A stretch of 27,222 nt of DNA from Deltaproteobacteria bacterium YD0425bin51 (GCA_002753225.1 PDZS01000015.1:1-27222); one strand, 5' to 3'. Shown: positions 1,766 through 27,222, numbered from the stretch's first letter. Numbers and translations: made by a program. Notes: generated by a model from the letters alone, not told the origin.

Positions 1766-1790
1766 TCTTTTTTCTTTTTAAAAAATAAGC

Positions 1791-5373: not shown

Positions 5374-5391
5374 AAATTAAATCCTTTTTTA

Positions 5392-5859: not shown

Positions 5860-5884
5860 AAATTATCCCTTATCTTTATTAGTT

Positions 5885-7690: not shown

Positions 7691-7700
7691 TTTAGTGTCC

Positions 7701-9335
7701 TCACGATCCTGCTGATTTACTTGGATTTGTTCTAATTAGAGAAGTTGGGTTTAATTCATTAATGTAATCTTTTATTCCTTTAACTATAGCTTCACATAAT
7801 TCATTCTGATATTGATGAGTAATTATTCTTTGACATTCCTTAGGGTTGCTGATAAAGCCTGCTTCAACTAAAATTGCAGGCATATGAGCGCCTAAAAGAA
7901 CATAAAAAGGCGCTTGCTTTACTCCCTTATCCTTTATCATATCATATTTGTTTGATAGGTGACCTGTTAAAGATTTTTGAACATAACCAGCAAGTCTGCT
8001 TGATTCATTAATTTTGGCATTTTGCATTAAGTCATTTAAAATACTTTGAAGATCGCTTATATTTTTGGTTGATGTAGCGTTTTCTCTGGCTGCTACACGT
8101 ATAGCATCATCATCTGTGGCTAAATTTAAAAAATATGTTTCAATCCCATATGCACGTTGGTCCTTTGTAGAATTTGCATGCATTGATATAAAAATATCTG
8201 CATTTTTAGTGTTTGCAATAGCAGTTCTCTCTTCTAATGTTAAATAATTATCATCGTTTCTGGTAAGTATTACTTTGCAACCTAATTTATCATGAATTTT
8301 TTGAGCGAGCTTTTTGGATATTTCCATTACAATATCTTTTTCTGCAATTCCTTTAATACTAGTTGGTGCTCCAATGTCATGACCGCCATGTCCTGGATCA
8401 ATGATTACTAGTTTTACCCCTAAAGCCAATTGTTTAGCTATAGCGCTTGGCGGTATTTTGGTTGTTGTTGAAGGGGGGGTGATCGGTTGTTTCGGTTTTT
8501 CTACATAATGAGGCTTTTCTGATGGCTTGCCCCATATATCTATAATTATTCTAAAAGGGTTATTTAAAGAAAAAATTTTATAGCTTTGAAAAGATTTAAT
8601 ATCAACTACTATTCTAACAGTTGTAAGGGTATATTGCCCAGCTCTTGCGCTTGTAAGCAGATCGTCATTTATTGGAATTATACTTTTGATTCGTTTTGGA
8701 AGTTTTGTATTTTCAAAATCAATGTAAAGACGAGGTGGTTTTTGAATACTAGGATCTTTTTCAAGAAGTTTATGTACAAAAGGAGTTTCATGGTTTAAAT
8801 TTATAACAACCCTGGTATAATTAGGGTTTGACCAAAATCGTAAATCTTCAATAAGATAAAGAGGTTTATTTTGTTTATTGATTTGTTTCTCTACAGGTTT
8901 ATCTATGGATTTCTCTATAGGTTTTTCTATAGATTTAGATTTAATAGCTAATTCAGGAAAAGCACTTAATGCTTCTTCTGATTTAATTTTATATTCGCTA
9001 CCTGGAAAATGCTTTATAACTCTTTGCAAAATATCTATAGCTTCTTTTTTATCTGATGCTTTAATAGATATTTTATGAAGTTCCAAGTAAAGCTTGCCTG
9101 CCATGTATAAAGCCTGAGCGCTTAATTTACCTGAGGGGTCTGACTTGTAAACCTGTTCAAATTTTTCAATACATGGAAACCAGTTATCACGAAATTGTCG
9201 TTTTTTTTCATTTTTTGACAGCGTCTGATAGCATGCTTCAGCTTTTTTATAGTCTTCTTGCATAGATGCAAACAACCAAATAGGTTTAAATATAAAAAAA
9301 AATAATATCAGAACAATTTTACAACTATATCTCAC
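7701..9335 (-). CDS. amiC: N-acetylmuramoyl-L-alanine amidase, AmiC-like (AMIN + Amidase_3 domains)
   Basis: A signal peptide. An AMIN-like segment (YTRVVINLNHETPF...RLYIDFENTKL). A Pro/Lys-rich repeat linker (IEKPIEKSIDKPVEKQINKQ). The Amidase_3 core VIIDPGHGGHDIGAPT...EKDIVMEISKKLA...FISMHANS. An 11-nt overlap with mutS. Confidence 0.75.
   Translation of the reverse strand: MRYSCKIVLILFFFIFKPIWLFASMQEDYKKAEACYQTLSKNEKKRQFRDNWFPCIEKFEQVYKSDPSGKLSAQALYMAGKLYLELHKISIKASDKKEAIDILQRVIKHFPGSEYKIKSEEALSAFPELAIKSKSIEKPIEKSIDKPVEKQINKQNKPLYLIEDLRFWSNPNYTRVVINLNHETPFVHKLLEKDPSIQKPPRLYIDFENTKLPKRIKSIIPINDDLLTSARAGQYTLTTVRIVVDIKSFQSYKIFSLNNPFRIIIDIWGKPSEKPHYVEKPKQPITPPSTTTKIPPSAIAKQLALGVKLVIIDPGHGGHDIGAPTSIKGIAEKDIVMEISKKLAQKIHDKLGCKVILTRNDDNYLTLEERTAIANTKNADIFISMHANSTKDQRAYGIETYFLNLATDDDAIRVAARENATSTKNISDLQSILNDLMQNAKINESSRLAGYVQKSLTGHLSNKYDMIKDKGVKQAPFYVLLGAHMPAILVEAGFISNPKECQRIITHQYQNELCEAIVKGIKDYINELNPTSLIRTNPSKSAGS
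8885..8940. repeat. Imperfect tandem repeats encoding the Pro/Lys-rich linker (IEKP/IDKP) of the amidase
   Basis: gtttctctacaggtttatctatggatttctctataggtttttctatagatttagat. The repeated unit is tctat(a/g)g(g/a)ttt. Confidence 0.5.
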
Positions 9336-12824: not shown

Positions 12825-13553
12825 TTAAATTGGAACAATCTCTAAATCTCCCCATGCTCCTAGTTTATCATCTATTATAATAACTATTCCTATTATCCCA
12901 TTAATATTTTTACCTGATCTTATAGCTTTATCTATATCTTTTTTTGATTTAACCATATTACCAATTGCAGTAGCACAAGAATCAGCAAGAGAACATGAAT
13001 GAGATACTACGCATACAGCATCAGCCTTTCCAAAACTTAAAGATGGTCCAACCTTTCCTGATGATGTACAAACTGCCATAGGTTTGTTAATTGAATTGAT
13101 TTTAAGTCCTATATGCAGACTAAGTGGTGAATCTCCAGCAAAAATTCCTACAGTTGCTGGATTGTCTAATTTAAGGAATATATCTCCGCCATTTTCAACA
13201 ATAACTTGAGGGCTGTAGGGAAGAATGCCATAGCCAACATGTTCAGCAATTGCTCCTGCAACAGATGCCATAGGGCCTACTCCTGCTTTTTTTGATGATT
13301 CTGACATTTCAGAAACAATAATGTGAACAGGTTCATTTATTTCCCATGGGACAAGGGTTTTAGCAAAGGATGGGTATCTTTTTATATAATTTTCTAAATA
13401 CCCTCTATATTCTAATACCAGTTCTCTAGTTATATCTTCAAGTGGAATTATGGAATGGACATGCAAATCAGTTTCTTTTACAACAACTCTATACTTTATA
13501 AGGTCATTTTTTTTTATTAAATTGCGATATGTACGTTCTTTATATTTCTCCAT
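12825..13553 (-). CDS. UPF0280-like conserved protein (ApbE-like superfamily), function unknown
   Basis: The N-terminal YRNLIKKNDLIKYRVVVKETDLHV pattern and the Gly/Ser-rich core (GVGPMASVAGAIAE, CTSSGKVGPSLSFGKADAVCV) recall the UPF0280/COG2122 family, recognised from memory only. A 14-nt overlap with the upstream ATP-grasp gene. Confidence 0.4.
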   Translation of the reverse strand: MEKYKERTYRNLIKKNDLIKYRVVVKETDLHVHSIIPLEDITRELVLEYRGYLENYIKRYPSFAKTLVPWEINEPVHIIVSEMSESSKKAGVGPMASVAGAIAEHVGYGILPYSPQVIVENGGDIFLKLDNPATVGIFAGDSPLSLHIGLKINSINKPMAVCTSSGKVGPSLSFGKADAVCVVSHSCSLADSCATAIGNMVKSKKDIDKAIRSGKNINGIIGIVIIIDDKLGAWGDLEIVPI

Positions 13554-14322
13554 TTTTAATAAGACTATCCATGAGGTTTATATAATCTATTCCAAGTTTT
13601 TTTAATCCTTCATGCCCATATTTCATATTTGCTTCTATTACATAAGCTTTATCTTTATAAATACATATATCTATTCCCACATCATTCCAATTAGTTTTTT
13701 TTGCTGTATATAAAGCAAGCTCATTAACACTTTGAGGTATAGGATCAAAACTGATTTTTCCACCAAGCGATACATTTGTCCGAAACTCATTGTTTTGTGC
13801 TATTCTCCAGTAAGAACAAATGATTTTTTCCCCAATTATCAAAACTCTTATATCTCGATTAATTGGTAAATATTCTTGAATATATGCAACATGAGTTTTG
13901 GATAGATAAATATATAAATCATCATAATTTTTAATAAGAAAGACACCTGCTCCTTTTGCTGATCCCCGTGCAATTTTAGCTATAAAAGGAAATTCAAAGT
14001 AATCAGTAATTTTTTTTTTTTGTTTTGTGCCATAAAAAATTTTTGTTCTTGGATGAGGGATATCAAGTAATTCAAATAAAGCTGTTTGTTTAATTTTATC
14101 CTGTGCATAAGCATAATTGCTATAACTCGGGAAAATATTTTTTCCCATTGTATTAAACAACTCACCATAAAGGCTTGTTGGATAATATATTTTACTAGCT
14201 GATTTTATAAGAAAAGATATTTCCTGTGGGTAGTCAGATAAATTGGGAAAAACCCCAACTGTTATAACATTTTTACATTTCCTAAGTCTTGAACCTAAAG
14301 CAATTACATTATTTTGCATCAT
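13540..14322 (-). CDS. RimK-like ATP-grasp ligase (glutamate-ligase family), substrate unknown
   Basis: The ATP-grasp motifs FPFIAKIARGSAKGAGVFLI, YIQEYLPINRDIRVLIIGEKII and FRTNVSLGGKI. 260 aa. The CDS contains an A12 homopolymer. Confidence 0.65.
   Translation of the reverse strand: MMQNNVIALGSRLRKCKNVITVGVFPNLSDYPQEISFLIKSASKIYYPTSLYGELFNTMGKNIFPSYSNYAYAQDKIKQTALFELLDIPHPRTKIFYGTKQKKKITDYFEFPFIAKIARGSAKGAGVFLIKNYDDLYIYLSKTHVAYIQEYLPINRDIRVLIIGEKIICSYWRIAQNNEFRTNVSLGGKISFDPIPQSVNELALYTAKKTNWNDVGIDICIYKDKAYVIEANMKYGHEGLKKLGIDYINLMDSLIKNGEI
14010..14021. repeat. A12/T12 homopolymer inside the RimK-like ATP-grasp CDS (encodes K-Q-KKK)
   Basis: Twelve consecutive T on the plus strand (A on the coding strand). 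The tract is in frame in the current sequence. Confidence 0.7.
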
Positions 14323-15083
14323 TGCATAGGATCTATAATAAATTTGAGTGGTGATACATAAACATTTGTCCAGTGTTTTTCTATTTGAAAATCAACACTT
14401 GTATCTTTTTTATTTGAAAAAACTATTTTTTTTGGAATTAAAAAACCTGCTTCATCATTATTATAATCAAATAAAGCTTCATATAATAATGAACCTGTTA
14501 AATCAAAGACTTCAACTTTTTCTACATTTTGCATATCTTTAGAAAAATAAATTTTTTCTATTATATTTCCAAGCAGCCCTTTTAAAATAATCATATTATT
14601 ATCTTTTGATATGCTGATTGAGCTATATTTTGGAATATAGATATGGCCTGATAAATATAAAATAATTTCATTAAGTTTGATCGGCAGAGAAATAATTCTT
14701 TTTAAGTTTGAATTTTTCGATGGATTTTTATAATATTTTTGTTCTATATGATTTACGGCATATAGCCATTCTCCATCATCAGCTAGACTCATGGCAGTTT
14801 GACCTGCAATTGGAAATATTTCAAATCTAATTTTGCTTGGAATTTCTGCTATCCATGCACAACGACTACTTTGAGACTTTCCTGAACTAAATAGCTTTAT
14901 TTTCCCTAGCCCTTTAAGAGTTTTTAAATTTTCATTTCGAGTGTTCAGTTTTTTAATAAGTTCTTCAGCTTCTAACTTATCATGGGTTACTTGAGGGCTT
15001 GGAGGCCTTTTTATTATTGAGCATCCAAAAAAAAATACAGAAAAACAAATCATTGCGGCTATTATACTTATATAAGTTTTCAT
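14319..15083 (-). CDS. Hypothetical lipoprotein (possible LolA/LolB-like fold)
   Basis: A lipoprotein signal with lipobox (MKTYISIIAAMICFSVFFFGCSII). 254 aa with no diagnostic motif. 4-nt overlaps on both sides. Confidence 0.4.
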   Translation of the reverse strand: MKTYISIIAAMICFSVFFFGCSIIKRPPSPQVTHDKLEAEELIKKLNTRNENLKTLKGLGKIKLFSSGKSQSSRCAWIAEIPSKIRFEIFPIAGQTAMSLADDGEWLYAVNHIEQKYYKNPSKNSNLKRIISLPIKLNEIILYLSGHIYIPKYSSISISKDNNMIILKGLLGNIIEKIYFSKDMQNVEKVEVFDLTGSLLYEALFDYNNDEAGFLIPKKIVFSNKKDTSVDFQIEKHWTNVYVSPLKFIIDPMQ

Positions 15084-16783
15084 TTATTTGTTAGTTCCTT
15101 TATTTTTTTTAGCATACTTTCTTTTTCTTTATCTTTTTTTTTAGGTAAAGACTGATTATACAATTTTAATGCCTTATCTTTGTTACCCATTTTAAAATAA
15201 ACGTCTCCCAAGTGTTCTAAAAGCGTGGGATCATCAGGAGCAAGACTTACAGCTTTTTCTAAATTTTTTAATGCTGCTTTCATGTTACCTTGCTTAAAGT
15301 AAACCCACCCTAAACTGTCCGTAATATATGCATCATCAGGTTTGTATTGTAATGCTGCTTTAATTAGTTTTTCTGCTTCATACAGATTTTCTCCTAAATC
15401 AGCATATGTATAACCAAGATAATTCAAAGCATCAGGATTTTTAGGATCAAGCTGTATAACTTTTTTCATCTGTTCTATACATTTTTCTTTTTTACCTGCT
15501 TTATCATAAATAACGCCTAACTGAAAATTAATATCAATATGATTAGGATCAAATTTTAGCCCTTCTTTTAAAATTTTTTCAGCTTCATTGTATGATTCAG
15601 TATCTATATAAATTAAGGATAGATAAATAAAAAGATTTAAATTGGGTTTTCCTCTAGATTCAGAAATAGCACTTTTAAGTAAAGAAATAGCGTAAGTTAG
15701 TTTCCCTTCCTCTTTATAAGTTAAAGCTAAAAATGTAGCCGCATTTTCATAAAATCTTGTTCCAGGTCTTACTTTTTTAAAATATGTTATTGCTAATTTC
15801 GGTTTTTTTAGTTCCTCATAAACAATACCTGTAATATAATTTATCTCAGAATTGTCAGGTAAAGTTTTTAGCATACCTTCAAGAACTATTAAAGCGTTAT
15901 CATATGTTTTGCTTTCAACGTAAAGTTGTACAATTATTTTTAATATTTCAGGATCAGATATACTTCTTTTGGCAAGAATATCAAATATTTCATAAGCTTT
16001 TTTAAGTATTTTTTCTTTATGATAATAAACAGATAGCTCAAGCATAGGAATAATACTATTATTATCTCTACTCAATATATCGAGATAACCTTCAATCACT
16101 TTTTTATTATTCTTTTCAATTTTATATATTCTTATCAGTTCATATTTTGATTGTAGAAAAGATGGCTCTATGTCTAAACTTTTTTTTAGATTTTTTTCAG
16201 CATCTTTTAATTCTTTGTTATCAATTAAAATTTTTCCTATTAAAAAATAAGCTATATAGGAATTTGGGAAATATTTAATCATTTGCCGATATAAATTTAA
16301 AGCTTTTTTTTCTTCATTTTGCTGCAGATATAAGTCACCTAAGAGCAAATAAGCATTTTGTTGGTTTGGATCTTTTTTCAAAACTTGTTCGTATATTCTT
16401 TTTGCTTCTTTTTCATTGTTTACAGATTGTTTTATTCTTCCGTAAAGAAATAATGCTTCAATATCATCAGGGTTTTTTTCATTAATATCTTGGGTAATCT
16501 TTAAAGCAGAATTATAATCTCGTTTTTGTAAATAAAGAGATATTACTTCTTTTTTCAAAAATAAAGATTCATTATCAAGCTCAAGAGCTTTTTGCATATA
16601 AATCAGAGATCTATCTATATTCCCTCTTTTTCTTTGAAGTTGTGCTTCTGTAAAGTAATAATATTTATTTTCCTTTGTAGGAGAGATATTTGTTGTTTGT
16701 GATAGAAATTTATTTTGTTGCAATGGGCATCCTATACAAAGTAATGAAATAAAAACAGTAAAAAAAAGTAAAAATTTTTTCAT
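15080..16783 (-). CDS. TPR-repeat lipoprotein
   Basis: A signal/lipobox LLCIGCPLQ. Numerous 34-residue TPR-like repeats (W/LG-Y-A-F-A-P pattern, e.g. AYLLLGDLYLQQNEEKKALNLYRQMIKYFPNS). Confidence 0.75.
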   Translation of the reverse strand: MKKFLLFFTVFISLLCIGCPLQQNKFLSQTTNISPTKENKYYYFTEAQLQRKRGNIDRSLIYMQKALELDNESLFLKKEVISLYLQKRDYNSALKITQDINEKNPDDIEALFLYGRIKQSVNNEKEAKRIYEQVLKKDPNQQNAYLLLGDLYLQQNEEKKALNLYRQMIKYFPNSYIAYFLIGKILIDNKELKDAEKNLKKSLDIEPSFLQSKYELIRIYKIEKNNKKVIEGYLDILSRDNNSIIPMLELSVYYHKEKILKKAYEIFDILAKRSISDPEILKIIVQLYVESKTYDNALIVLEGMLKTLPDNSEINYITGIVYEELKKPKLAITYFKKVRPGTRFYENAATFLALTYKEEGKLTYAISLLKSAISESRGKPNLNLFIYLSLIYIDTESYNEAEKILKEGLKFDPNHIDINFQLGVIYDKAGKKEKCIEQMKKVIQLDPKNPDALNYLGYTYADLGENLYEAEKLIKAALQYKPDDAYITDSLGWVYFKQGNMKAALKNLEKAVSLAPDDPTLLEHLGDVYFKMGNKDKALKLYNQSLPKKKDKEKESMLKKIKELTNK

Positions 16784-16810: not shown

Positions 16811-17779
16811 TTATTCAGAAAAAGTGCCATTATTATATAAATCAAAATCAGGTATTTCCCGTTTAAAAAAATCGCGCATTTTATTTATTAAATTTTGTTC
16901 AATTTGACGCACTCTCTCTCTTGAAATTCCATATCGGTCTCCCATTTCTTGAAGTGTAATGGGATCATCTGAGAATACTCGCTGTTCAAACAATTCAATC
17001 TCTCTTTTAGTCAGCTTCTTTTTAAATTCATCAATTTTAGAGTAAAGAAGTTTATCCATTTCTTTTTTAGCCATTTGGTCTTCAATTGATTTAGCATCTG
17101 TTGATAAAAATTCTATTCTCTCAGTGTCTGAATCTTCCTTCAGAGGAGCATCTAATGATATATCCCAGCTATCTAACCTTTGATCCATGTCAATGACTTC
17201 ACGTTCAGGAACACCTAATCTCTCTGAAAGAAGCTTAGGTTTTGGATCAAATCCTTCTTCTATTAACTTTTGTTTTTCTTTTTTGAGTCTAAAAAAAAGT
17301 TTACGCTGTCCCTGAGTTGTTCCAATTTTTACAAGCCTCCAGTTATCCATAATAAATTTAAGAATATAGGCTTTTATCCAGAATGAAGCATAATATGAAA
17401 ATTTAACACCTTTATAGGGGTTAAATTTTTTAGCAGCTTGTATAAGGCCAATATTTCCTTCTTGAATTAAATCTAGAAGGTTGTGCATCCAAACCTTTTG
17501 AAATTCCAAAGCTATTTTAACAACTAATCTAAGATTAGAAACAATTAAAGTATAGGCTGCCTCCTTATCTTCATTTTCAAAAACGCTCATTGCAAGCTTG
17601 TTTTCTTGTTCTCTTGTAAGAAGTTTATAATTACTTATTTCAGATAGATAACGCTGTAGGGGATCATATTTAATAATTGCAGTTTCATATATTTTCTTTT
17701 CTGGCTGAATATAATTATAATCTTCATTTGATTCTAAAGCAGAATTGTTTTCCAAGTCATTGTTTCTATTTTTTTCCAT
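16811..17779 (-). CDS. rpoH: RNA polymerase sigma-32 (heat-shock) factor RpoH
   Basis: Sigma-70 region 2 (LIVSNLRLVVKIALEF...GNIGLIQAAKKFNPYKGVKFSYYASFWIKAYI). An RpoH-box-like QRKLFFRLKK. Region 4 HTH ITLQEMGDRYGISRERVRQIEQNLINKMR. 322 aa. Confidence 0.8.
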   Translation of the reverse strand: MEKNRNNDLENNSALESNEDYNYIQPEKKIYETAIIKYDPLQRYLSEISNYKLLTREQENKLAMSVFENEDKEAAYTLIVSNLRLVVKIALEFQKVWMHNLLDLIQEGNIGLIQAAKKFNPYKGVKFSYYASFWIKAYILKFIMDNWRLVKIGTTQGQRKLFFRLKKEKQKLIEEGFDPKPKLLSERLGVPEREVIDMDQRLDSWDISLDAPLKEDSDTERIEFLSTDAKSIEDQMAKKEMDKLLYSKIDEFKKKLTKREIELFEQRVFSDDPITLQEMGDRYGISRERVRQIEQNLINKMRDFFKREIPDFDLYNNGTFSE

Positions 17780-17867: not shown

Positions 17868-17941
<74 letters not shown>

Positions 17942-17953
17942 CTTACAAAATCA

Positions 17954-17988
17954 AGGGTTTACAGAATGTAATCTGTAAACCTTTTTTG
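17954..17988 (+). terminator. Rho-independent terminator downstream of tRNA-Arg
   Basis: A GGGTTTACAG - loop (aatgtaat) - CTGTAAACC stem followed by TTTTTT. Confidence 0.65.
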
Positions 17989-18200
17989 CTTTAGACAATT
18001 TAATCCTGCCATAGCTCCAATTGTTTAGTAATAACATTATAATTATCTTTAACTTTACATCATCAATTAAATTGTCTAACATATTTATTGTCCGCTATAT
18101 TTTATACCCTACATATTTAACAATATCAACTTTAAAGATAGAAATAAATCCGATAAACCATTATGTTGATCTAAATAGAAAGACCGGAAATTAGCTCTAA

Positions 18201-18262
18201 AAAAAGCCCCCAATAGAAAAATATGCAGTAGTTTCCTATTTTTTGTATTGGGGGCTTTTACA
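18201..18262. terminator. Long GC-clamped hairpin flanked by an A-tract and a T-tract (bidirectional terminator-like, with no obvious gene to terminate)
   Basis: aaaaaGCCCCCAATAGAAAAATA-tgcagtagtttcc-TATTTTTTGTATTGGGGGCtttt forms a 10-bp perfect GC-rich stem extended to about 18 bp with one mismatch. The extended-stem loop is 13 nt. Confidence 0.5.
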
Positions 18263-18340
18263 TAAAAAAAATTAAAGATAATTTTTTTTTAATTTGCTAT
18301 ATATACTATCATGAGCATAAATTATAGCTGAAGAAGCATA

Positions 18341-18370
18341 TTGAAAATAGAAATCAAAAAGCTTTAAAAA
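18341..18370 (+). promoter_or_regulatory. Candidate sigma-70-like promoter for the plus-strand operon (TTGAAA-N17/18-TTAAAA/TAAAAA)
   Basis: The -35-like TTGAAA at 18341-18346 and an A/T -10-like hexamer at 18364-18370. The call is weak because the region is extremely AT-rich. Confidence 0.2.
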
Positions 18371-18411
18371 TAAAACAGGTGAATGGGCACATATAAGTTA
18401 AATTGGAAAAT

Positions 18412-18424: not shown

Positions 18425-21001
18425 ATGTACGGCTGGATACTACATGATAATACTGAAATCGCAGAGATTAAAAGGGCTACTGACGAAGCTGCCAAAGCTA
18501 ATGTCACTATTGAATTGGTTTATCCTAAGGATATTGAATTGATTTTAGAACATTCTTATGATGGGGTAATTTACGTAAGAGGTGTGAAAAAACAATTGCC
18601 TGAGTTTGCTATTGCAGCTTTTTTGAACGAAGTTGACTACTATAATCTTGCGATTCTTCGTCAGTTAGAGACATTAGGTGTTCTTTGTATAAATACAGCA
18701 GATGCCATATTAAACTCAAGCGATAAACTTTTGACCTCACAGCTTTTGATATCACATAACATACCTGTTGCAAAAACCGCTTTACTGCGGGCTAATTCAG
18801 ATTTGGAAATTTTAGAATCTGAGATTGGTTTACCTATGATAGCAAAGGTTATGAATGGAAGTAAAGGAAAAGGAGTCATTCTTATACAGACAAAAGCTGA
18901 GTTAAAGAATCTCTTAGAGCTTTATGTAGCCGGAGGTTTTAGAAGTGAAATTTTACTTCAGACGTATATAGCTTCCAGCAAGGGTAAGGATTTACGAGTA
19001 TTTATAATAGGCGGTAAAGCATTGGCCTGTTTCATTAGGCAAAACGCCAGTGATGGATTTAAGTCCAACATTTCAGTAGGAGGATTTGGCTCTCCGCATC
19101 CTCTAACAGATTCTATCAAAAAAATAGCTGAAAAAGTTGCTAAAATTCTTGGTTTGAATATGGCAGGAATTGATCTTATGTTTGGACCAGATGGCTATAT
19201 TGTTGGAGAGGCTAATTCACTCCCTGGTTTCCAGGGGTTGGAGGCTGCTACAGGGATTAATGTTCCGGTCAACGCCTTGTTTAGTATTGCTGGGCAATTG
19301 ATTTCTCGTCCTGCTCCACCATGGCGCATTAAGCAAATATTTTCAGAATCTATGAAAATGCCGATGCCGGAAGTTCTTTTACATCAGTCTAAAACTATAC
19401 TGCCTGGTGTTGCACGTTCTTTGTTCAATCACTGCCAAGAGGCTCAAAATATTGTATTGTTTAATATTATTAATTTTTGCCGAGATACTGAATTCGGCAA
19501 AGGGCATAATTTTTATGATATTAAATCGATCGATGATTTCCGAGAACGAGTACCTATATCAAGCTGGCCAGATTATGAGATCTATGCACAACGAATGGCA
19601 AATGGGGAGAAAAATATTCTTTTCCCTGGTGCTCCAGAGTATTTTATAACTACATCAGGGACTACATCTAATAAATTAAAAATGATTCCAGAGAGTAATT
19701 ATGGTGCTATTGCCAAAAAGGCTATATCGTTGGTTAGGCGGAATTTACTTTTTTCTCTGTTTCATGATATAGGTAAGTTAGGTCATTTTTTTGCACTTTC
19801 GAATTCTTCAAACCTTTCAGTTACTCCTGCAGGTATTCCTATTGGTTTTGCTTCTGGAATTACCAGATCACAGGTTGATGCATCTTTATCATCTTTAGAT
19901 GCTTATCCATCTGAAATCCTGAACATTTCAGATAATGAAAGTGTTGATTATCTTATCATGCGTTTTGCTCTTCATCACAAAGACATGATGGCTTTAATCG
20001 GTAATAATGCTGGACGGATGAGAGTGCTTGCCGATTATGCGCAAGAGCATGCAGAAGAGATTATTTCCGATATAGAGAAAGGAACAATCAGTAAAAGATT
20101 ATCCATCTCTGCAGAAGAAAGGAGATTGCTTGAAGAAAAATTAAAGCCTTCCCCTGAAAGGGCAGCTGAATTAAGAGATATTATAAAGAAAAACAATGGT
20201 GGATTTCTCCCCAAACATTATTGGCCTCAAATTCGTTTAGCTTGTTTCTGGCTGTCAAGTACAGTAGGCAATTACATAGATGATATACGTCCTTTGTTAA
20301 ACGATAGCGTTATATATATGGATGCAGGGTATGGTTCAAGTGAATTGAAGATCAATATCCCTATGAAACCTAATGAATCTTTTGCTCCAATAGCTCCATT
20401 TGTAGCATTTTTTGAGTTTTTGCCAATTGGTGGAATAAAGCCTCTACTTGCACATGAGCTAACCGATGGTTCTATGTATGAACTTATAATAACTACATAT
20501 TCAGGACTATACCGATATAATATTCAAGATTTAGTTAAAGTATGCGGTTTTACAGGCAATACTCCTAATATAGAATTTGTTATTAAAAGTATAGAGGTAG
20601 CTAATATTTCTGATGAAAAGATACCGGGATCAGTTATTAATTCATGTGTAAGAGAAACTGCAAGCTCCATAGGTATATCTATTAAGCAGTGTCAGGTATA
20701 TCCAGATCAGGATGCACGTAGATATGTTTTTCTTATCGAACCAGAAGGAACTACTTCTAATTTCCCAGTTGATGAATTTCTTATAATCTTGGATAAAACT
20801 CTTAAGGAACAGCATATGGCTTATAGAGTATTTAGAGGACAAAAGCTCATTCATCAACCAGTTATTAGAATTATGCGTCAAGGATGGCAGGAAAGTCTTT
20901 ATCGTGAGAAAATTAAGCCAGGAATTACAACTTCACAAATTAAATTGCCATATATTATTAGCCTTTTGCCTGATCCTACATGGTTTTTAAAAGGGGAATA
21001 A
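18425..21001 (+). CDS. Fusion protein: N-terminal RimK-type ATP-grasp ligase + C-terminal GH3-family adenylate-forming acyl-acid amido synthetase
   Basis: The ATP-grasp motifs GLPMIAKVMNGSKGKGVILIQT, DLRVFIIGGKALACFIRQNASDGFKSNISVGGFGSP and GIDLMFGPDGYIVGEANSLPGFQGLE. The GH3 motifs FRERVPISSWPDYEIYAQRMANGEKNILFPGAPEYFITTSGTTSNKLKMIP (adenylation P-loop-like motif), YMDAGYGSSE (the YxSSE motif) and YRYNIQDLVKVCGF (the YRYR-GD-like motif). 859 aa from the SD-supported ATG. Confidence 0.75.
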   Translation: MYGWILHDNTEIAEIKRATDEAAKANVTIELVYPKDIELILEHSYDGVIYVRGVKKQLPEFAIAAFLNEVDYYNLAILRQLETLGVLCINTADAILNSSDKLLTSQLLISHNIPVAKTALLRANSDLEILESEIGLPMIAKVMNGSKGKGVILIQTKAELKNLLELYVAGGFRSEILLQTYIASSKGKDLRVFIIGGKALACFIRQNASDGFKSNISVGGFGSPHPLTDSIKKIAEKVAKILGLNMAGIDLMFGPDGYIVGEANSLPGFQGLEAATGINVPVNALFSIAGQLISRPAPPWRIKQIFSESMKMPMPEVLLHQSKTILPGVARSLFNHCQEAQNIVLFNIINFCRDTEFGKGHNFYDIKSIDDFRERVPISSWPDYEIYAQRMANGEKNILFPGAPEYFITTSGTTSNKLKMIPESNYGAIAKKAISLVRRNLLFSLFHDIGKLGHFFALSNSSNLSVTPAGIPIGFASGITRSQVDASLSSLDAYPSEILNISDNESVDYLIMRFALHHKDMMALIGNNAGRMRVLADYAQEHAEEIISDIEKGTISKRLSISAEERRLLEEKLKPSPERAAELRDIIKKNNGGFLPKHYWPQIRLACFWLSSTVGNYIDDIRPLLNDSVIYMDAGYGSSELKINIPMKPNESFAPIAPFVAFFEFLPIGGIKPLLAHELTDGSMYELIITTYSGLYRYNIQDLVKVCGFTGNTPNIEFVIKSIEVANISDEKIPGSVINSCVRETASSIGISIKQCQVYPDQDARRYVFLIEPEGTTSNFPVDEFLIILDKTLKEQHMAYRVFRGQKLIHQPVIRIMRQGWQESLYREKIKPGITTSQIKLPYIISLLPDPTWFLKGE

Positions 21002-21003
21002 TT

Positions 21004-22512
21004 ATGAAAAAAGAAAAATGGAACAATAATCATTTTCACATTAAAGTTCCTAACTCTTTAAATTCCATACCAATTGTACAGTCATTTATCAAAAGTTGTG
21101 CTTTGATAATGGATTTTAAGGAACCAGAATTGACTCATTTGGAAATTGTTGCTGAGGAACTAAGCACTAATATTCTTCAACATGCTTACAGATCTGATGA
21201 ATTGGCTAACTTCACCATTGATTGCATACTTAACGTAGATCAGCTGGAAATTATTTTTCGAGATCAAGGACGTCCATTTGATCCTGAGCATTTGCCAGAT
21301 TTTTCGGGTATTGATCCGTCAACTCTTGATGCTCCTGCTGGTTTAGGACTCTATCTTTCTGCCCGTCTCGTGGATCTATTTAATGCAAGAAATCTAGGCT
21401 CCATGGGGAAAGAGATTCGCCTCATTAAAAGGCTTAAAGGCTCTTGGCAATTATCAAAAGAACCTGATGGTTTCCGTCAGATACAGACTTTATATCGCAA
21501 GGAAGATTTTGATATGGTGCAGGTTCGTTCTATGCGTCCTGAAGAAGCTATACAGGTTTCGAGGTTAATTTATGATGTCTATCACTATACCTATATGTCA
21601 GAAATCCCTTATAATCCACATAGACTTAGACAACTGCAAGAAGATGGACGTCTTTACTCCTTTGTAGCAGTTTTGGGAAATGGAGTTGTCGCATCTCATG
21701 TTGCCCTTCAGATTTCACCTGATATGCCAAGACTTGGAGAATATTGTCTTGCCGCTACTTTACCAGAAGCAAGAGGTTATAAATTGGCTGAAAAGGTTGG
21801 TTTAGCTCTTTTAGAGACTGTTATGGGGTTGGGGATAACTGGACTTTATGCTAATTTCACAACAGTCCATACAATTTCACAGCGAAAAAGACAGGGACTT
21901 GGAACTGCTGTAGGATTCTTGTTGGCTCGAAGTCCTGAAACTCTTCAAATGAAAGATATTCTTGAAACAGCCCCACAGAGAGTTTCCACTTTATTGATGT
22001 TTCAGAGCTTAGTTGAACGTGAACCTGTTATCGTATATATTCCTGAACAACATAGAGATTTTATATCTGATATATATTGCCGTTGTAAACTTCCTGTGAA
22101 ATTTGATACTAAAGTTACCGATCTTCCAGATATTAATAGCCAATTGGAGATTTTAATTGAGAAGGAGCGTAATATTGCTAAATTATCGGTGATAGAAGCT
22201 GGGAGGGATTTATTGCCTCAGATCAAGGAACGCCTTTTCGGCTTGCGTCTGAATAATACTTCGGTAGTTTTCTCTTTTTTGAACCTTATGGATCCCCATA
22301 CTCCAAAAGTAGCAGCTATACTTGAAGAAATGGGATTTTTTATAACTGGAGTTTTGCCTTTAGGGATAGGTATTAATGATGCATTGCTGATGACATGTCT
22401 TATTAACTGCGCTCTGGATTATGACAAGATTGAACTTTTTGACAAAGAAAGTAAAGATCTTCTTAATTATGTTCGAAGACAAGATCCTTCTTTACCAAAG
22501 CTATTATTATGA
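21004..22512 (+). CDS. Multidomain protein: RsbW/SpoIIAB-like HATPase (anti-sigma-factor kinase-like) N-terminal domain fused to GNAT-like acyltransferase domain(s)
   Basis: The start ATG is 2 nt after the upstream stop, giving translational coupling. The N-terminus has IVAEELSTNILQHAY and a G2-box-like GLGLYLSARLVDLF, as in HATPase_c_2. The middle has VQVRSMRPEEAIQVSRLIYDVYH...YSFVAVLGNGVVASHVAL...LPEARGYKLAEKVGLALLE, consistent with a GNAT fold and motif A. The C-terminal ~170 aa are unassigned and may be a second acyltransferase-like half. Confidence 0.5.
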   Translation: MKKEKWNNNHFHIKVPNSLNSIPIVQSFIKSCALIMDFKEPELTHLEIVAEELSTNILQHAYRSDELANFTIDCILNVDQLEIIFRDQGRPFDPEHLPDFSGIDPSTLDAPAGLGLYLSARLVDLFNARNLGSMGKEIRLIKRLKGSWQLSKEPDGFRQIQTLYRKEDFDMVQVRSMRPEEAIQVSRLIYDVYHYTYMSEIPYNPHRLRQLQEDGRLYSFVAVLGNGVVASHVALQISPDMPRLGEYCLAATLPEARGYKLAEKVGLALLETVMGLGITGLYANFTTVHTISQRKRQGLGTAVGFLLARSPETLQMKDILETAPQRVSTLLMFQSLVEREPVIVYIPEQHRDFISDIYCRCKLPVKFDTKVTDLPDINSQLEILIEKERNIAKLSVIEAGRDLLPQIKERLFGLRLNNTSVVFSFLNLMDPHTPKVAAILEEMGFFITGVLPLGIGINDALLMTCLINCALDYDKIELFDKESKDLLNYVRRQDPSLPKLLL

Positions 22513-22532
22513 ATGGAAAGGTAATATAGATT

Positions 22533-23753
22533 ATGTCTGGATTGTTAAGTGTATTTAGAGAACGTAATTATTCTTTTTTCTTTACCGGACAAGCTTTATC
22601 GTTTATCGGAAATTGGATGCAGAGTACCACATTTAACTGGCTTCTATATCAATTTACTGATTCGCCTTTCCTTCTGGGGTCTATGAGTGCTGCTATAAAC
22701 ATTCCATTACTAATTTTAATTCCATATGCTGGTTCTATGGTTGATAGATTTGACCATAGGAGACTACTTTTATTTTTACAGACAATCTTCATGATCCATG
22801 CTTCACTCCTTGGAGCGCTTGCTTATTTTGATTTATTGAATTTGACATTAATTGTTGCTATGGGATGCATTCAAAGTTTTTTAAATGCTTTCGATGGTCC
22901 TGCTAGGCAGGCTTTAGTTCCTCAATTGCTGAATGATCGCAGTAAAATGCCTGCAGCAATAGCACTTAACTCAGTAATGGTAAATACTACCCGTACTTTT
23001 GGACCTCCTTTAGCAGGTTGGATACTGACTAAAAACAGTTCTGTATCTTGCTTTCTACTAAATGCTTTAAGCTATTTTTTTATGTTATTAGCTTTGATGG
23101 CACTTCAATTCAGTAACTCTGATAATAAAGGCAAACATAGGGAATATACGAGTGCTTTAGATAATCTGCTGTTTATTGTTAGTCTCCCATCGCTGAGATA
23201 TCTGTTTATATCTTATATAGTTGTTGCTGTGGCAACAATGTCTGTTTATGTTCTGCTGCCAATCTGGTCTGCTGATATACTAAAAGCTGGTCCACAGGGA
23301 TTAGGTTTGATGATGGGAGGGATTGGAGCAGGGGCTTTACTTGGAGCTATTATTGTAGGTTCCCAAAGTAACCAAGTCCGTTTATGGCTATTATTTCGTT
23401 ATTCCTCTTTACTGCTGGGATTTGCTTTAATATTGATTTCTTCTATAAATGGTATTACCCCTATTATCATGGTTACTGTAATGCTAGGTATGGCATATAT
23501 AGGACAAAGTGTTGCTGCAAACACACTTCTTCAGATGAGTGTTGATGATTCTCGTCGCGGTGGCATCATGGCATTCTATCTACTTGTTGCATTTGGTTCT
23601 ATACCAGTTGGCAATGTTTTAGGTGGGTGGCTTGGACATATCATTGGATTGAAAGGTGCAGCTATGACAGCAGGTATAACAGTTTTGATCTCCATTTTTT
23701 TTCTTTGGAGAACTAGTAGCAGAGTTATGCAATTAGTATTCAAAGAAAACTGA
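22533..23753 (+). CDS. MFS transporter (EntS/MFS_3-like putative exporter)
   Basis: A 406-aa protein with ~12 hydrophobic segments. The N-terminal FFFTGQALSFIGNWMQ and the loop motif SMVDRFDHRRLL (the MFS D-R-x-x-R-R-like motif between TM2 and TM3). An RBS-like GGAAAGG lies upstream of the ATG. Confidence 0.8.
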   Translation: MSGLLSVFRERNYSFFFTGQALSFIGNWMQSTTFNWLLYQFTDSPFLLGSMSAAINIPLLILIPYAGSMVDRFDHRRLLLFLQTIFMIHASLLGALAYFDLLNLTLIVAMGCIQSFLNAFDGPARQALVPQLLNDRSKMPAAIALNSVMVNTTRTFGPPLAGWILTKNSSVSCFLLNALSYFFMLLALMALQFSNSDNKGKHREYTSALDNLLFIVSLPSLRYLFISYIVVAVATMSVYVLLPIWSADILKAGPQGLGLMMGGIGAGALLGAIIVGSQSNQVRLWLLFRYSSLLLGFALILISSINGITPIIMVTVMLGMAYIGQSVAANTLLQMSVDDSRRGGIMAFYLLVAFGSIPVGNVLGGWLGHIIGLKGAAMTAGITVLISIFFLWRTSSRVMQLVFKEN

Positions 23754-23784
23754 CAGTATTATTTTACTATTCAGTGTATTTACG

Positions 23785-24477
23785 ATGAAAAATAAAAAGG
23801 CTAATATTTTAGTAATTGAAGATGACATGGCAATTTGTCGTGGATTATTAGACGTTTTAGTATTTAATGGATATGAAGCAGAAGGTTCATTTGATGGCAA
23901 AGAAGGCTTTAAAAAGGGATTAGAAGGCAAATATGACCTTATTATGTTAGATGTTATGCTTCCAAATATGGATGGTTTTACTATTTGTCGAGAAATAAGA
24001 AAGAAAAAACCAAAACAACCAATTATTATGATAACAGCAAAAGGATCTGAAGATGATATTATAGCTGGATTTAAGGCTGGAGCAGATGATTATGTACCCA
24101 AGCCATTTTCATTAAGAGAACTCATGGTTAGAGTTGAAGCTATTTTGAGACGTAGTGGAAAAAATATAGGGGATGAGCAAATAGAATATCTCGGTATATT
24201 TTTTGACGGAAAAACCCTTAATGCAAAATATCAAGGAAAAATTATTGAAATGACAAGAAGAGAAATGGATATAATATTTTACTTGTATAAAAACAATGAT
24301 CGTATTGTATCCAAAAAAGAGCTTTTATCTTCCATCTGGGGATATCAAAATCCTGACATAGAAACTCGTACAGTTGATATTCATATGTTAAAACTTAGGA
24401 AAAAGATTATTGATTTAACCAATATTCAATCCTTTATCGCAACTATACGTGGTGAAGGATATAGATTAGAATTATAA
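23785..24477 (+). CDS. OmpR/PhoB-family DNA-binding response regulator
   Basis: The REC domain (ILVIEDDMAICRGL...LIMLDVMLPNMDG...IIMITAKG) plus a winged-helix output (TVDIHMLKLRKKI...GEGYRLE). Confidence 0.88.
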   Translation: MKNKKANILVIEDDMAICRGLLDVLVFNGYEAEGSFDGKEGFKKGLEGKYDLIMLDVMLPNMDGFTICREIRKKKPKQPIIMITAKGSEDDIIAGFKAGADDYVPKPFSLRELMVRVEAILRRSGKNIGDEQIEYLGIFFDGKTLNAKYQGKIIEMTRREMDIIFYLYKNNDRIVSKKELLSSIWGYQNPDIETRTVDIHMLKLRKKIIDLTNIQSFIATIRGEGYRLEL

Positions 24478-24480
24478 TAT

Positions 24481-26280
24481 TTGAAAAAATTACTCATATT
24501 AATAATTATTTTCTGCCTTTTTTTATCAATACCACTTTACTATTTTATCTTACGAACATATTTAAGCCTTGAACAAGAAGAGGTTTCAAAATTCAGATAT
24601 TTTGGAGAAACTCTTTTCGATCAAATGGAGGGTTTTCTTGCTGAATTAGTTGTTAAAGAGGAAAGTAGAGCAGTCGATGAATACAATTATTATTATAACC
24701 CTAAAGGGTTATCTTCTGTCATTTCACCTCTTTCAAAACTTCCTTATCCTTATTATATAATAGGATATTTACAAAATAATCCAGATGGCTCTTTTGAAAC
24801 CCCTGTTCTTGAAAAAAGACAAAATATCCCACCAAATTTAGCTTCTCTAATTACAAAGCTTACTGATGTAAATAATTCTTTTAATTCAAAAAGAGCTTCT
24901 ATTATTCATGAAAATATTGAAGCTCCCAGTCAGTCTTATACTGTTGCATCTAAAGAAGTAAAAAAAGATGAAAGTTTTGGAGGTAAATTTTTAGATTTTT
25001 CAAGATCTCAAAAGCAAAAGGTATATTTAGGTCAAGAAGAGAAAAGAGTTGAAGAAATTCCAGCATCTCAAGCGTTAAACCTTTCAAAACAGGAACAAAA
25101 TTATCCGCAAAATGAGATCATAAAAGGCGAAATCTATCATAATCAGGCAGAAATAACTCCAATGCAGTCATTAATTATAAATAATAGTGAAATTTTTATT
25201 TTCAGAAGAATTATGATAGCTAATAAAATATATAGACAGGGATTTGTTATTAATGCAAAAGCATTTTTAAATAATTTAGCAAATCTATATTTTAATGGAC
25301 AGCCAATGGCAAATTTTACTGGTTTAAAACTAAATATAAGTGACAGAGGTTATGAAATCTCATCATTTTTTTCTGGTGTTCAAATCAAAAACCTCAATTT
25401 TTCATTAAAGAGAGTATTCGGCCGTCCATTTTCTTTTCTGTCAGCAACATTATTATGTGAAGATATCCCAAAATCTTCTGGAAGAAAAACCTTAAACATT
25501 ATGATGATTATTTTGAATGCAATAATTTTTATAGGGATGTTTACAATTTATAAGAGTGCAAAAACAGTAATGGATTTATCTAATAAAAAAGCTAGCTTTG
25601 TTTCTTCTGTAACCCATGAGCTTAAAACTCCGCTTACAAATATTCGTATGTATATTGAAATGCTAGAACAGGGTATTGCAGGAAATATTGAACGTGAAGC
25701 AGAATATTTCCATATTTTGGAGAATGAGACTAGCAGGCTTTCACGTTTAATTAACAATGTATTGGAATTTTCGAAAATAGAACAAAAGCGATTTGATATT
25801 AAAGAAGGAACTTTTGATGATGTAATAAAAGATGTTTACGAAATAATGGGTAAAAGTCTTAGAAAGGAAGGTTTTATTTTTAAGATCAATTTAGATTCCC
25901 ATAGATTTTCATATGATCGTGAAGTTATGATTCAGGTAATGATAAATCTAATAGAAAACAGTATAAAATTTGGAACAGATGGAAATTTAAAAGAAATTGT
26001 GGTTAATATAAGACCTTATAAAAAGTGGATCAAAATAAGTGTATCAGATACAGGACAAGGTATTCCAGCAAAGGAGCTAACCAAAATATTTAATGATTTT
26101 TATCGGGCTGAAAATGCTAAAAATAAAAGAGGAACAGGTATTGGGTTAGCTTTGGTGAAAAAGCTTATTATAGGTATGGGAGGCCGGGTGTATGCAAAAA
26201 ATAATGAAAAAACACCCGGCTGCACAATAACTCTTATGCTTCCTAATATTTCCCAAACTCATTATCGTCAAGAGGTATGA
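24481..26280 (+). CDS. Sensor histidine kinase with a large periplasmic sensing domain (TM - ~300-aa periplasmic - TM - HisKA - HATPase_c)
   Basis: The TTG start lies two codons after the regulator stop, in the same frame. TM1 is LLILIIIFCLFLSIPLYYFIL and TM2 is TLNIMMIILNAIIFIGMFTIY. The H-box is FVSSVTHELKTPLTNIRMYIEM, the N-box MINLIENSIKFG, and the G-boxes DTGQGIP and GTGIGLALVKKLIIGMGG. Confidence 0.8.
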   Translation: MKKLLILIIIFCLFLSIPLYYFILRTYLSLEQEEVSKFRYFGETLFDQMEGFLAELVVKEESRAVDEYNYYYNPKGLSSVISPLSKLPYPYYIIGYLQNNPDGSFETPVLEKRQNIPPNLASLITKLTDVNNSFNSKRASIIHENIEAPSQSYTVASKEVKKDESFGGKFLDFSRSQKQKVYLGQEEKRVEEIPASQALNLSKQEQNYPQNEIIKGEIYHNQAEITPMQSLIINNSEIFIFRRIMIANKIYRQGFVINAKAFLNNLANLYFNGQPMANFTGLKLNISDRGYEISSFFSGVQIKNLNFSLKRVFGRPFSFLSATLLCEDIPKSSGRKTLNIMMIILNAIIFIGMFTIYKSAKTVMDLSNKKASFVSSVTHELKTPLTNIRMYIEMLEQGIAGNIEREAEYFHILENETSRLSRLINNVLEFSKIEQKRFDIKEGTFDDVIKDVYEIMGKSLRKEGFIFKINLDSHRFSYDREVMIQVMINLIENSIKFGTDGNLKEIVVNIRPYKKWIKISVSDTGQGIPAKELTKIFNDFYRAENAKNKRGTGIGLALVKKLIIGMGGRVYAKNNEKTPGCTITLMLPNISQTHYRQEV

Positions 26281-27222
26281 TATCTTCAGGATCAGATAAA
26301 TCAGTGGGAGCTGGCAGTTTTTTTACTTGTTGTTTAACTTTATGTTCTATAATTAAGTTTTGAGCTGCTTTTTTAGGAGTATAATCTTTTTTAAATTCTT
26401 TTGATTTCTTTACTTCTTTTACTTCTTCTATTTTAACTGTTTTTGCTTTTTTTACTTCTTTTACTTCTTTTAATTTAAATTTAGAAAGTAAAGTTTTTAC
26501 ATTATTAGCGTGTGATGAAAACTGTTGAGCTGTTGCAGAAGTAGCTTCAGCATTTGCAGTATTTTGATTTGTTATACTGTCTATTTGGCTTATACCTTGG
26601 TTGATTTGTCCTATTCCAAGAGCCTGTTCATTGCTTGCTGAAGCTATTTCGGTCATTATAGTTGCAACTTTTTTAATGTCTTCATTAATTTCATCTAATG
26701 CTCTTCCTGTATCTCCAGCAATAGCTGCTCCTTTTTCTATTTTTTGAATAGCATTTTCTATAAGATTAGCTGTTTCTTGCGCTGCTTTACCAGATCTTGA
26801 AGCAAGATTCCTGACTTCCTGGGCTACTACTGAAAATCCTTTTCCATGTTTTCCTGCCCTTGCTGCTTCAATTGCTGCATTTAAAGATAAAAGATTTGTC
26901 TGGAAAGCTATTTCATCAATAGCTTTCATGATTTTGCTGATTTCTTTACTTGATTCACTTATCTCACCCATGGCAGAAATCATTTCTTTTACCTGAACAA
27001 CGCCATTTTGAGCAGCGTTACATGCACTAGCTGATAGTTTGTTTGCTTCAGAAGCATTGTCAGCATTTGTTTTTGTTTGTGAGGCTAATTCTGTCATAGA
27101 ACTGCTTATTTCTTCAATAGAAGCAGCTTGAGTCGAAGCTCCTTGAGATAGTGAATTGCTAGAATTTGAAAGGTGGGAAGCTCCTGATGCTACTTGATCC
27201 ATCGACATATAAACTTCGCTGA
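26243..27222 (-). CDS. Methyl-accepting chemotaxis protein, C-terminal portion (N-terminal sensing part lies beyond the window end)
   Basis: The MCP signalling-domain core [41 protein letters not shown]. The frame remains open upstream of the first Met to the window edge. The C-terminal K/E/V-rich repeat tail is [28 protein letters not shown]. The gene overlaps the kinase gene 3' end convergently by 38 nt. Confidence 0.75.
26405..26475. repeat. Tandem short repeats (unit ~TACTTCTTTT) encoding the KEVKEVKK tail of the MCP
   Basis: ttctttacttcttttacttcttctattttaactgtttttgctttttttacttcttttacttcttttaa. The repeats can be seen directly in the sequence. Confidence 0.6.

Follow-up and report, generated by a model that had tools for sequence, protein, structure and literature searches.

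In this study, we analysed a 27,222-nt stretch of DNA from Deltaproteobacteria bacterium YD0425bin51 (GCA_002753225.1, PDZS01000015.1:1-27222; the whole stretch is called the window), which has a G+C content of about 30% and carries five co-directional open reading frames (ORFs) on its plus strand, g1 to g5. These encode a RimK-GH3 ligase fusion (g1), an RsbW-like protein joined to a GNAT domain (g2), an MFS exporter (g3), and an OmpR-type regulator and sensor kinase (g4 and g5) (Table 1). An earlier sequence-only reading had proposed all five genes as a candidate operon that makes, modifies, exports and senses a small molecule. Comparison of gene neighbourhoods indicates that the functional unit is three genes, g1-g3, and not five. 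We consider it likely that g1-g3 form the make-and-export core for a small glutamate-containing conjugate; a gating role of g2 is proposed tentatively, at somewhat less than an even chance. The proposal as a whole, in which ligation and export are combined with control by g2 and the two-component pair stands outside, has in our judgement about an even chance of being correct.

Conservation of the three-gene cassette

Loci were pooled from protein look-ups, a genome scan seeded with g2 and a metagenome scan seeded with the fusion, and were subjected to our own ORF, hidden Markov model and clustering analysis. The genome scan for g2 used an alignment of 22 sequences, as an alignment of 145 sequences was too diverse. 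The results showed 16 non-redundant loci with both GH3 and RimK (L070 and L071 treated as one), from at least three phyla and with hosts that include Thermodesulfobacteriota, Bacillota (Sporomusa malonica) and Gammaproteobacteria (Thiorhodococcus fuscus). The two ligases were fused as RimK-GH3 in the window, L001 (S. malonica), L003 (T. fuscus), L062, L064, L065, L066, L076 and L077, and as a RimK-GH3-GH3 triple fusion in L004 (P0008). They were separate genes in L067-L071 and L073, where GH3 or two GH3s came before RimK, and in L072, where RimK came before GH3. The occurrence of RimK and GH3 both fused and split, in both orders, is a classic sign of two ligases that serve a common pathway.

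A full g2 homolog directly adjoined the ligases in 10 of the 16 loci, and the stop codon of one gene often overlapped the start codon of the next. In two further loci (L070/71 and L072) only the RsbW-like part was present, as a separate protein of 140-152 aa accompanied by a STAS protein; L072 additionally encodes a dCache-HAMP-SpoIIE phosphatase. An exporter adjoined in 14 of the 16 loci, belonging to the MFS in nine, to MatE in L001 and L062, and to an ABC pair in L070/71, L073 and L076; L073 carries MatE besides its ABC pair. This swapping of exporter families (MFS, MATE, ABC) indicates that export itself is the conserved function. Ligases and exporter occurred without a GNAT in L064 and L070-L073. 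Four other loci (L008, L010, L011 and L074) had g2 followed by a stand-alone GH3, with an MFS gene next in L008, L010 and L074; the L011 contig ends inside the GH3 gene. The association of g1, g2 and g3 is kept across phyla, indicating that their adjacency is not accidental. The make and export parts of the earlier interpretation were therefore supported, the GH3 and RimK ligases being fused or neighbours and an efflux transporter of interchangeable family being nearly always there.

In a neighbour-joining tree of g2, the GH3-linked proteins fell into two clades, A and B. A GH3 neighbour was present for 11 of 11 proteins in clade A; in clade B, which contains the window protein, GH3 was a neighbour in 4 of 9 and MFS in 7 of 9. 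Both g2 and the MFS gene of the window belong to clade B and are closest to the Competibacteraceae-type loci, whose usual set is a stand-alone GH3, an MFS_3 transporter and a patatin. The window ligase was 69% identical to the clade-A fusion of Sporomusa, and its position before g2 inverts the gene order found in all other cassettes. From these comparisons the window operon looks chimeric, with a clade-A-type ligase and clade-B-type g2 and MFS genes, that is, a reshuffled set of the same three functions, and this reshuffled combination reinforces their functional linkage.

The ATG of g1 sits 7 nt past an AGGAGG, and its product is 100% identical to NCBI protein P0001. A longer ORF from 18383 was considered and rejected, as the N-termini of homologs gave no support. 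Pfam searches identified Rimk_N and RimK (aa 99-282, 121.6 bits) in the ATP-grasp part, followed by GH3 N, M and C at 203.3, 69.2 and 45.0 bits (cutoff 23.6), and the protein passed the TIGR00768 rimK_fam subfamily cutoff (192.8 bits vs 143.4). The closest solved structures of the ATP-grasp part were RimK 7qyr (E = 7.5e-37) and 4iwx, with E values of about 1e-34 to 1e-37; the GH3 part was complete and matched JAR1 and GH3.12 in the PDB (E about 1e-31). The fusion is rare: when 5.8 billion proteins were searched by word index, 12 full-length relatives came up, a count that leaves out the window's own record. GH3 nucleotide-binding motifs have been defined as (S/T)SGT..K, YGSSE and GLYRYxxGD (PMC12493201). 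The GH3 segments TSGTTSNKLK, GYGSSE, GLYRYNIQD and QIKLP showed no variation in 12 fusions and aligned to GH3.12 and JAR1, and the ATP-grasp Mg/ATP residues K141, D250, E262 and N264 were equally invariant across 12 fusions. K840, within QIKLP, aligned with the lysine of the Q-Y/F-K-x-P motif of plant GH3s (QYKTP in GH3.12). Scores against the equivalogs for RimK (S6 ligase), LysX, MptN and CofF were 128.9, 131.8, 127.4 and 83.5 bits (cutoffs 331, 275.6, 350 and 300), and that against the OlsH equivalog NF052613 was 69.2 bits (cutoff 620). These scores, far under the cutoffs, indicate that g1 is not an ortholog of the characterised members. It is predicted to be two ATP-dependent amide ligases in one polypeptide. 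Searches of the literature for the RimK-GH3 fusion, for HATPase_c_2 with GNAT and for partner switching with GNAT found nothing relevant, and the fusion and its constant coupling to the RsbW-GNAT protein are new to the literature searched.

The g3 protein has 11-12 hydrophobic segments and passed MFS_3 (PF05977) with 169 bits against a cutoff of 27, whereas its score against the EntS equivalog was 94.2 bits (cutoff 324). This transporter is therefore a DHA3-type MFS and not EntS. In the g5 kinase, hydrophobic segments at aa 1-19 and 336-354 flank an extracytoplasmic sensor region of about 315 aa, in which no Pfam match was found. Its TTG start is the same as in NCBI record P0181 and does lie in the frame of g4, 696 nt apart, as had been stated, and this shared frame is without functional meaning. 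Homologs of this sensor domain number at least 155 (33-53% identity), mostly from Desulfobacteria. No cassette genes were found beside two kinases sharing it in other Desulfobacteria (L078 and L079): the kinase of Desulfonema limicola with this type of sensor stands without a partner regulator, flanked by cysS and a gene for diacylglycerol kinase, and the regulator-kinase pair of L079 adjoins VWA and PspA genes. An OmpR/kinase pair was absent from every other cassette locus read. The neighbourhood search that the sequence-only reading had proposed as a check thus found g1-g2-g3 recurring across phyla and g4-g5 not conserved with them, and the claim that the kinase belongs to the system as its sensor was not supported. 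Judged by these neighbourhoods, g4-g5 is an independent, lineage-typical system, a local addition outside the conserved cassette, and annotation of the pathway should leave it out. The pair, of which g4 is probably co-transcribed with the cassette, may drive transcription of the operon here.

Predicted pathway and role of g2

GH3 enzymes adenylate a carboxylic acid and pass the acyl group to an amino acid. The characterised RimK-family ligases RimK, CofF, MptN and RIMKLA/B attach L-glutamate to a terminal carboxylate; LysX and ArgX differ in that they couple aminoadipate or glutamate, through its amino group, to the terminal carboxylate of a carrier protein. From this family chemistry we infer that the GH3 domain of g1 would adenylate a carboxylic acid and link it to an amino acid at the amino group, and that the RimK domain would form an acyl-phosphate on the terminal carboxylate and then add L-glutamate. 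The simplest product would be an acyl-aminoacyl-(alpha-)glutamate or an oligo-glutamate conjugate, made in the cytoplasm without a nonribosomal peptide synthetase (NRPS), and g3 would pump it out, as the persistence of an exporter of variable family suggests. No NRPS domains (condensation, adenylation, peptidyl carrier protein) and no IucA/IucC domains of NRPS-independent siderophore (NIS) synthesis were found in g1-g5 by Pfam. The earlier statement that the locus does not resemble an NRPS or NIS pathway therefore holds, and the locus can fairly be read as an amide-ligase route independent of NRPSs.

Patatin-like lipases adjoin five related loci (L008-L010, L012 and L076), which, together with the precedent of the bacterial GH3 OlsH, hints at fatty acids as the GH3 substrate. 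In Sporomusa (L001) and L076, an AMP-binding enzyme and a carrier protein (PP-binding) lie directly upstream of g2, which hints at a carrier-bound acyl donor. Extra biosynthetic-looking genes, namely AMP-binding with PP-binding and a further ATP-grasp, occur in some loci. A poly-glutamylated or N-acyl amino acid product is a reasonable guess from family knowledge.

The g2 protein contains three domains (Table 1). The first, identified as Pfam HATPase_c_2 (aa 16-142, 54.5 bits), has a GHKL fold and retains the N, G1 and G2 ATP-binding boxes; the score of g2 against the RsbW equivalog was 41.1 bits (cutoff 145). An AlphaFold2 model based on an alignment of 145 family representatives had a predicted local distance difference test (pLDDT) score of 94.3 and a predicted template-modelling score of 0.84. 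This deep alignment was needed, 12 sequences giving a pLDDT of 56 and an unusable model. Fold comparison of the model confirmed the GNAT identity of the second domain, and a GNAT match at E ≤ 1 was found in 12 of 12 close homologs. GNAT motif A (R/Q-x-x-G-x-G/A) fits the g2-family consensus RGxGxx and the RGHGLA of close homologs. The best fold matches were small-molecule amino-acid N-acetyltransferases (tabtoxin resistance protein TTR, BAR, ArsN and PaiA), the ranks of which discriminate poorly. Profile-profile comparison (hhalign) of this GNAT domain with the C-terminal domain found no similarity (probability 1.5%), so the third domain is called GNAT-like solely by its order of strands and helices.

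The RsbW-GNAT family is large, wholly uncharacterised and without description in the literature searched. A profile search of 1.84 billion representatives gave 650 clusters (at 50% identity) at E ≤ 1e-30, and among the 150 best matches listed nearly all were ~500 aa long and aligned over their full length. The 53 genomic loci of the family span many phyla, including archaea (Methanosphaerula, Thermoplasmata). Besides GH3 or RimK-GH3, and MFS in 12 loci, the neighbours of g2 included a LuxE acyl-protein synthetase with a LuxC-AMP-binding fusion (fatty-acid-reductase-like) in seven loci (L017, L027, L032, L051, L054, L055 and L060), AMP-binding acyl-CoA synthetases in eight loci, a glutamine-synthetase-type enzyme in L006, and proteins with a PPDK_N domain. 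The LuxE/LuxC type, of which one of the seven loci belongs to the methanogen Methanosphaerula subterraneus, is a separate, equally uncharacterised cassette. One of the AMP-binding synthetases, divergent from the g2 gene of the RimK-GH3-GH3 cassette in L004, is an acetyl-CoA synthetase (643-2964, minus strand; ACAS_N, AMP-binding, AMP-binding_C) with an extra N-terminal STAS domain. The common theme of these neighbours is carboxylate-activating enzymes of several unrelated types. In L006, L009 and L012, a conserved 453-aa protein without a Pfam family (for example L009 9527-10888, minus strand) takes the place of GH3; its gene is located between those for g2 and MFS and runs in the opposite direction. 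Its matches as a circularly permuted ATP-grasp were sub-threshold (E 0.04-0.11), suggestive, and are not counted as evidence here.

Components of partner switching also accompany the family. Single-domain STAS proteins that retain YISSAGLR, the phospho-serine motif of anti-sigma antagonists, occurred in 16 non-redundant loci, and PP2C (SpoIIE) phosphatases in L003 and L072. In L056 (Acetobacterium tundrae), a fusion of MatE with a C-terminal RsbW-like HATPase_c_2 domain (6121-7923) lies directly upstream of the g2-family gene. The RsbW-like domain of g2 is predicted to bind a STAS antagonist encoded elsewhere in the genome, and the GNAT domain would gate the ligase. It might, for example, acetylate the conserved catalytic-type lysine in the adenylating domain, in the way that Pat and AcuA modify acyl-CoA synthetases. 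The alternative is that the GNAT domain would N-acylate the product, and between the two we lean slightly towards gating. A regulatory role is favoured because the family adjoins chemically unrelated activating enzymes and STAS partners, because L004 has the STAS-Acs fusion, because some cassettes keep ligases and exporter without the GNAT, and because Pat, AcuA and PatA provide a precedent. Tailoring or self-protection is favoured by the fold, which is like that of amino-acid-analogue N-acetyltransferases, and by the tight translational coupling.

Several observations weigh against a conserved cassette controlled by g2. L064 and L073 have no RsbW-like gene, the fusion of L077 has no adjacent exporter, and many g2-family genes are solitary. 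No STAS gene was found in the window. The GNAT domain of the window protein falls under the Pfam threshold (Acetyltransf_1, E = 0.06, 14.1 bits vs 20.7), and its motif A (aa 257-262) reads R-G-Y-K-L-A, where most relatives have R-G-H-G-L-A; the central glycine is also missing in 2 of 11 aligned close homologs (P0019 and P0027). This altered acetyl-CoA pyrophosphate-binding motif may affect CoA binding. The fold matches of the modelled GNAT domain favour tailoring or self-protection over protein acetylation. Finally, given its odd gene order and mixed clades, the window operon could be a recent, possibly non-functional assembly.

The five-gene account, in which the g2 GNAT is a tailoring enzyme that N-acylates the amino acid or the conjugate and the kinase senses the product, seems doubtful to us. 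The tight coupling of g1 and g2 (2 nt apart in the window, overlapping in L003 and L004), the likeness of the GNAT fold to amino-acid-analogue N-acetyltransferases and the terminator-free gap between g3 and g4 are all consistent with it, and the AMP-binding enzyme and carrier upstream of g2 in Sporomusa and L076 could supply an acyl-S-carrier donor. However, it has to accommodate a two-component system that is missing from all other cassettes and whose two sensor homologs were read in unrelated contexts, GNAT-less cassettes that retain ligases and exporter, and a g2 family that adjoins chemically unrelated activating enzymes and STAS partners, and it leaves the RsbW-like domain unexplained.

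The same genes could be read as conjugation-and-efflux resistance, with GH3 and RimK conjugating and the GNAT acetylating a toxic exogenous acid or amino-acid analogue, the pump expelling it and the two-component system sensing the toxin. The placement of g3 in the DHA3 group with the Tet(V), Tap and Mef efflux pumps, the resemblance of the GNAT to the resistance enzymes TTR, BAR and ArsN, and the position of the sensor system after the pump in the window point in this direction, as does the inactivation of hormones through conjugation by plant GH3s (PMC10747189). We nevertheless judge it improbable: two or three ATP-dependent ligations per detoxified molecule would be costly and unprecedented, some loci hold the extra biosynthetic-looking genes mentioned above, and no resistance-gene model matched at cutoff. 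Still more improbable is a protein-modification system, in which the RimK domain would glutamylate a protein C-terminus as on ribosomal protein S6, GH3 and GNAT would modify it further and the transporter would be unrelated. RimK enzymes acting on S6 are indeed the closest solved relatives of the ATP-grasp, and the protein acetyltransferases RimI and NatA are among the GNAT fold matches; yet g1 scores far under the S6-ligase equivalog cutoff, the window leader holds no conserved small substrate ORF, and exporters of three families are conserved with the ligases. To our knowledge, all characterised GH3s act on small acids, which also counts against a protein substrate.

Returning to the gating reading, a wider form of it would make RsbW-GNAT proteins a sixth class of regulatory protein acetyltransferase, gated by partner switching, in which STAS docks and the GNAT acetylates the neighbouring adenylating enzyme. 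We offer this as a speculation that is unlikely to hold in full. If true, unphosphorylated STAS on the RsbW-like domain would switch the GNAT, the catalytic lysine of GH3, LuxE or acyl-CoA synthetase would be acetylated, and synthesis of secondary metabolites or lipid conjugates would be toggled by stress signals; RimK-GH3 would be the first bacterial GH3 building an exported glutamyl conjugate. The links of the g2 family to STAS and adenylating enzymes suggest a role for partner switching in controlling metabolic enzymes and not just sigma factors. A new exported metabolite is the probable outcome of the cassette, which offers a compact, phylogenetically broad context for a second bacterial GH3 function.

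Locus layout and surrounding genes

The order and positions of the five genes and the gaps between them, 2, 20, 31 and 3 nt, agreed with the earlier description when read from the sequence, and Pfam, NCBIfam and fold comparison confirmed the domain content assigned to them. No terminator-like site was found in any of the four intergenic gaps, including g3-g4, and one transcript for g1-g5 is plausible on this layout. The 3' end of g5 overlaps a convergent gene for a methyl-accepting chemotaxis protein (MCP) by 38 nt. Upstream, a hairpin resembling a bidirectional terminator starts ~220 nt past the terminator of a tRNA-Arg gene, with an AT-rich stretch without annotation between them (17985-18200). 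The two shield the operon from upstream transcription, and the operon promoter is therefore expected within about 18260-18410. In the 440-nt leader, no Rfam riboswitch was found, and a search for a precursor-peptide ORF or conserved small substrate ORF returned only low-complexity ORFs of 34-57 aa without support. The anti-phage defence models of PADLOC gave no match to g1-g3.

Table 1. Positions of genes, domains and other elements in the window
Feature	Position (nt)	Strand	Description
g1	18425-21001	+	858-aa RimK-GH3 fusion
g1, ATP-grasp part	18434-19270	+	aa 4-282
g1, GH3 part	19424-20959	+	aa 334-845
g2	21004-22512	+	502-aa three-domain RsbW/SpoIIAB-like-GNAT protein
g2, domain 1	21031-21432	+	RsbW/SpoIIAB-like GHKL, aa 10-143
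g2, domain 2	21517-22008	+	GNAT acyltransferase, aa about 172-335
g2, GNAT motif A	21772-21789	+	aa 257-262
g2, domain 3	22015-22503	+	C-terminal, GNAT-like strand and helix order, aa 338-500
g3	22533-23753	+	406-aa MFS_3 (DHA3-type) efflux transporter
g4	23785-24477	+	OmpR/PhoB-family response regulator; Response_reg and Trans_reg_C
g5	24481-26280	+	sensor histidine kinase, TTG start; HisKA and HATPase_c
tRNA-Arg(TCT)	17868-17942		upstream of operon
tRNA-Arg terminator hairpin	17953-17984		upstream of operon
Hairpin	18202-18259		20-nt arms AAAAGCCCCCAATAG...CTATTGGGGGCTTTT; A-run and T-run on flanks
Sigma-70-family factor	16811-17779	-	full-length (regions 1.2, 2, 3, 4)
RimK-like ATP-grasp gene	13540-14322	-	260 aa, RimK 93.5 bits
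Gene row with RimK-like gene	12825-16783	-	tightly spaced
Peptidase_C14 gene	119-1765	-	caspase-like domain fused to two Lcl_C domains
Signalling cluster	2293-7690	-	
MCP gene	26243-27208		truncated

A sigma-70-family gene precedes the operon in divergent orientation, and the operon itself encodes an anti-sigma-like domain in g2. At other loci, where no systematic search was made, no sigma gene of this kind was conspicuous next to g2 (L007 has a 114-aa Sigma70_r4 protein), and the adjacency in the window is probably a coincidence. The window also contains a second, stand-alone RimK-like ATP-grasp gene, placed in a tight minus-strand row with genes for a 242-aa protein, a DUF4292 protein and a 567-aa TPR protein; by its sequence context it is unrelated to the cassette. 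The signalling cluster comprises a PAS hybrid histidine kinase with two receiver domains, a CheC/CheX phosphatase, a single-domain response regulator, an LTXXQ protein and a GAF-HD/HD_5 phosphohydrolase, and together with the MCP gene it makes the region rich in signalling genes. The caspase-like gene lies near the start of the window.

Comparison with known systems

In the dapdiamide pathway, the adenylating amide ligase DdaG works with the ATP-grasp enzyme DdaF. Fungal E-64 is likewise made by an ATP-grasp enzyme and an amide bond synthetase, in an NRPS-independent manner (PMC12568646). As in these pathways, adenylate-forming and ATP-grasp ligases would act in succession here to give a small acyl-peptide, from a compact cluster with an associated efflux function. 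The present cassette differs in that a GH3 replaces the standard ANL amide synthetase, the ATP-grasp is of RimK type and the two are fused; moreover, it has no warhead-forming enzymes and adds the RsbW-GNAT protein.

GH3 enzymes are widespread in bacteria; OlsH is the only characterised bacterial GH3 (2025) and converts a fatty acid and ornithine to lyso-ornithine lipid (PMC12493201). g1 shares with it the bacterial GH3 fold, the three nucleotide-binding motifs and, as predicted, the use of ATP and a free acid, but has no OlsI partner, is fused to RimK and is coupled to an exporter. RIMKLA and RIMKLB, which form N-acetyl-aspartyl-glutamate, act with NAT8L, and in bacterial Ngg a GNAT and an ATP-grasp give N-acetylglutaminylglutamine amide. 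In these systems, too, a GNAT and a RimK-type ligase are combined, the product being an N-acyl di- or tripeptide that ends in glutamate or glutamine; they lack the GH3 step, the exporter and the RsbW domain. The match of g1 to the Ngg model TIGR03103 was weak (26 bits, cutoff 569).

With regard to the proposed gating, Pat/PatZ, AcuA-AcsA and the cAMP- or ACT-gated PatA acetylate the catalytic lysine in the C-terminal domain of adenylate-forming enzymes (PMC8556138, PMC11255334, PMC6434083). g2 resembles these acetyltransferases in having an N-terminal sensory domain fused to GNAT (as in type III) or tandem GNAT (as in type V) and in its gene adjoining an AMP-forming enzyme, whereas no RsbW-type sensory domain appears among the five architectural types that have been reviewed. 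We know of no case of acetylation of a GH3. The RsbW-RsbV, SpoIIAB-SpoIIAA and SiaB-SiaC pairs share with g2 the ExxxN, DxG and GxG boxes, and with loci of its family the STAS neighbours with a phospho-serine motif and the PP2C (SpoIIE) phosphatase found in L003 and L072; in contrast to theirs, the kinase domain of g2 is covalently fused to an enzyme and probably does not bind a sigma factor. The component families of the cassette are thus known, and dapdiamide and E-64 provide precedents for its logic, in which an adenylating ligase is combined with an ATP-grasp ligase and efflux.

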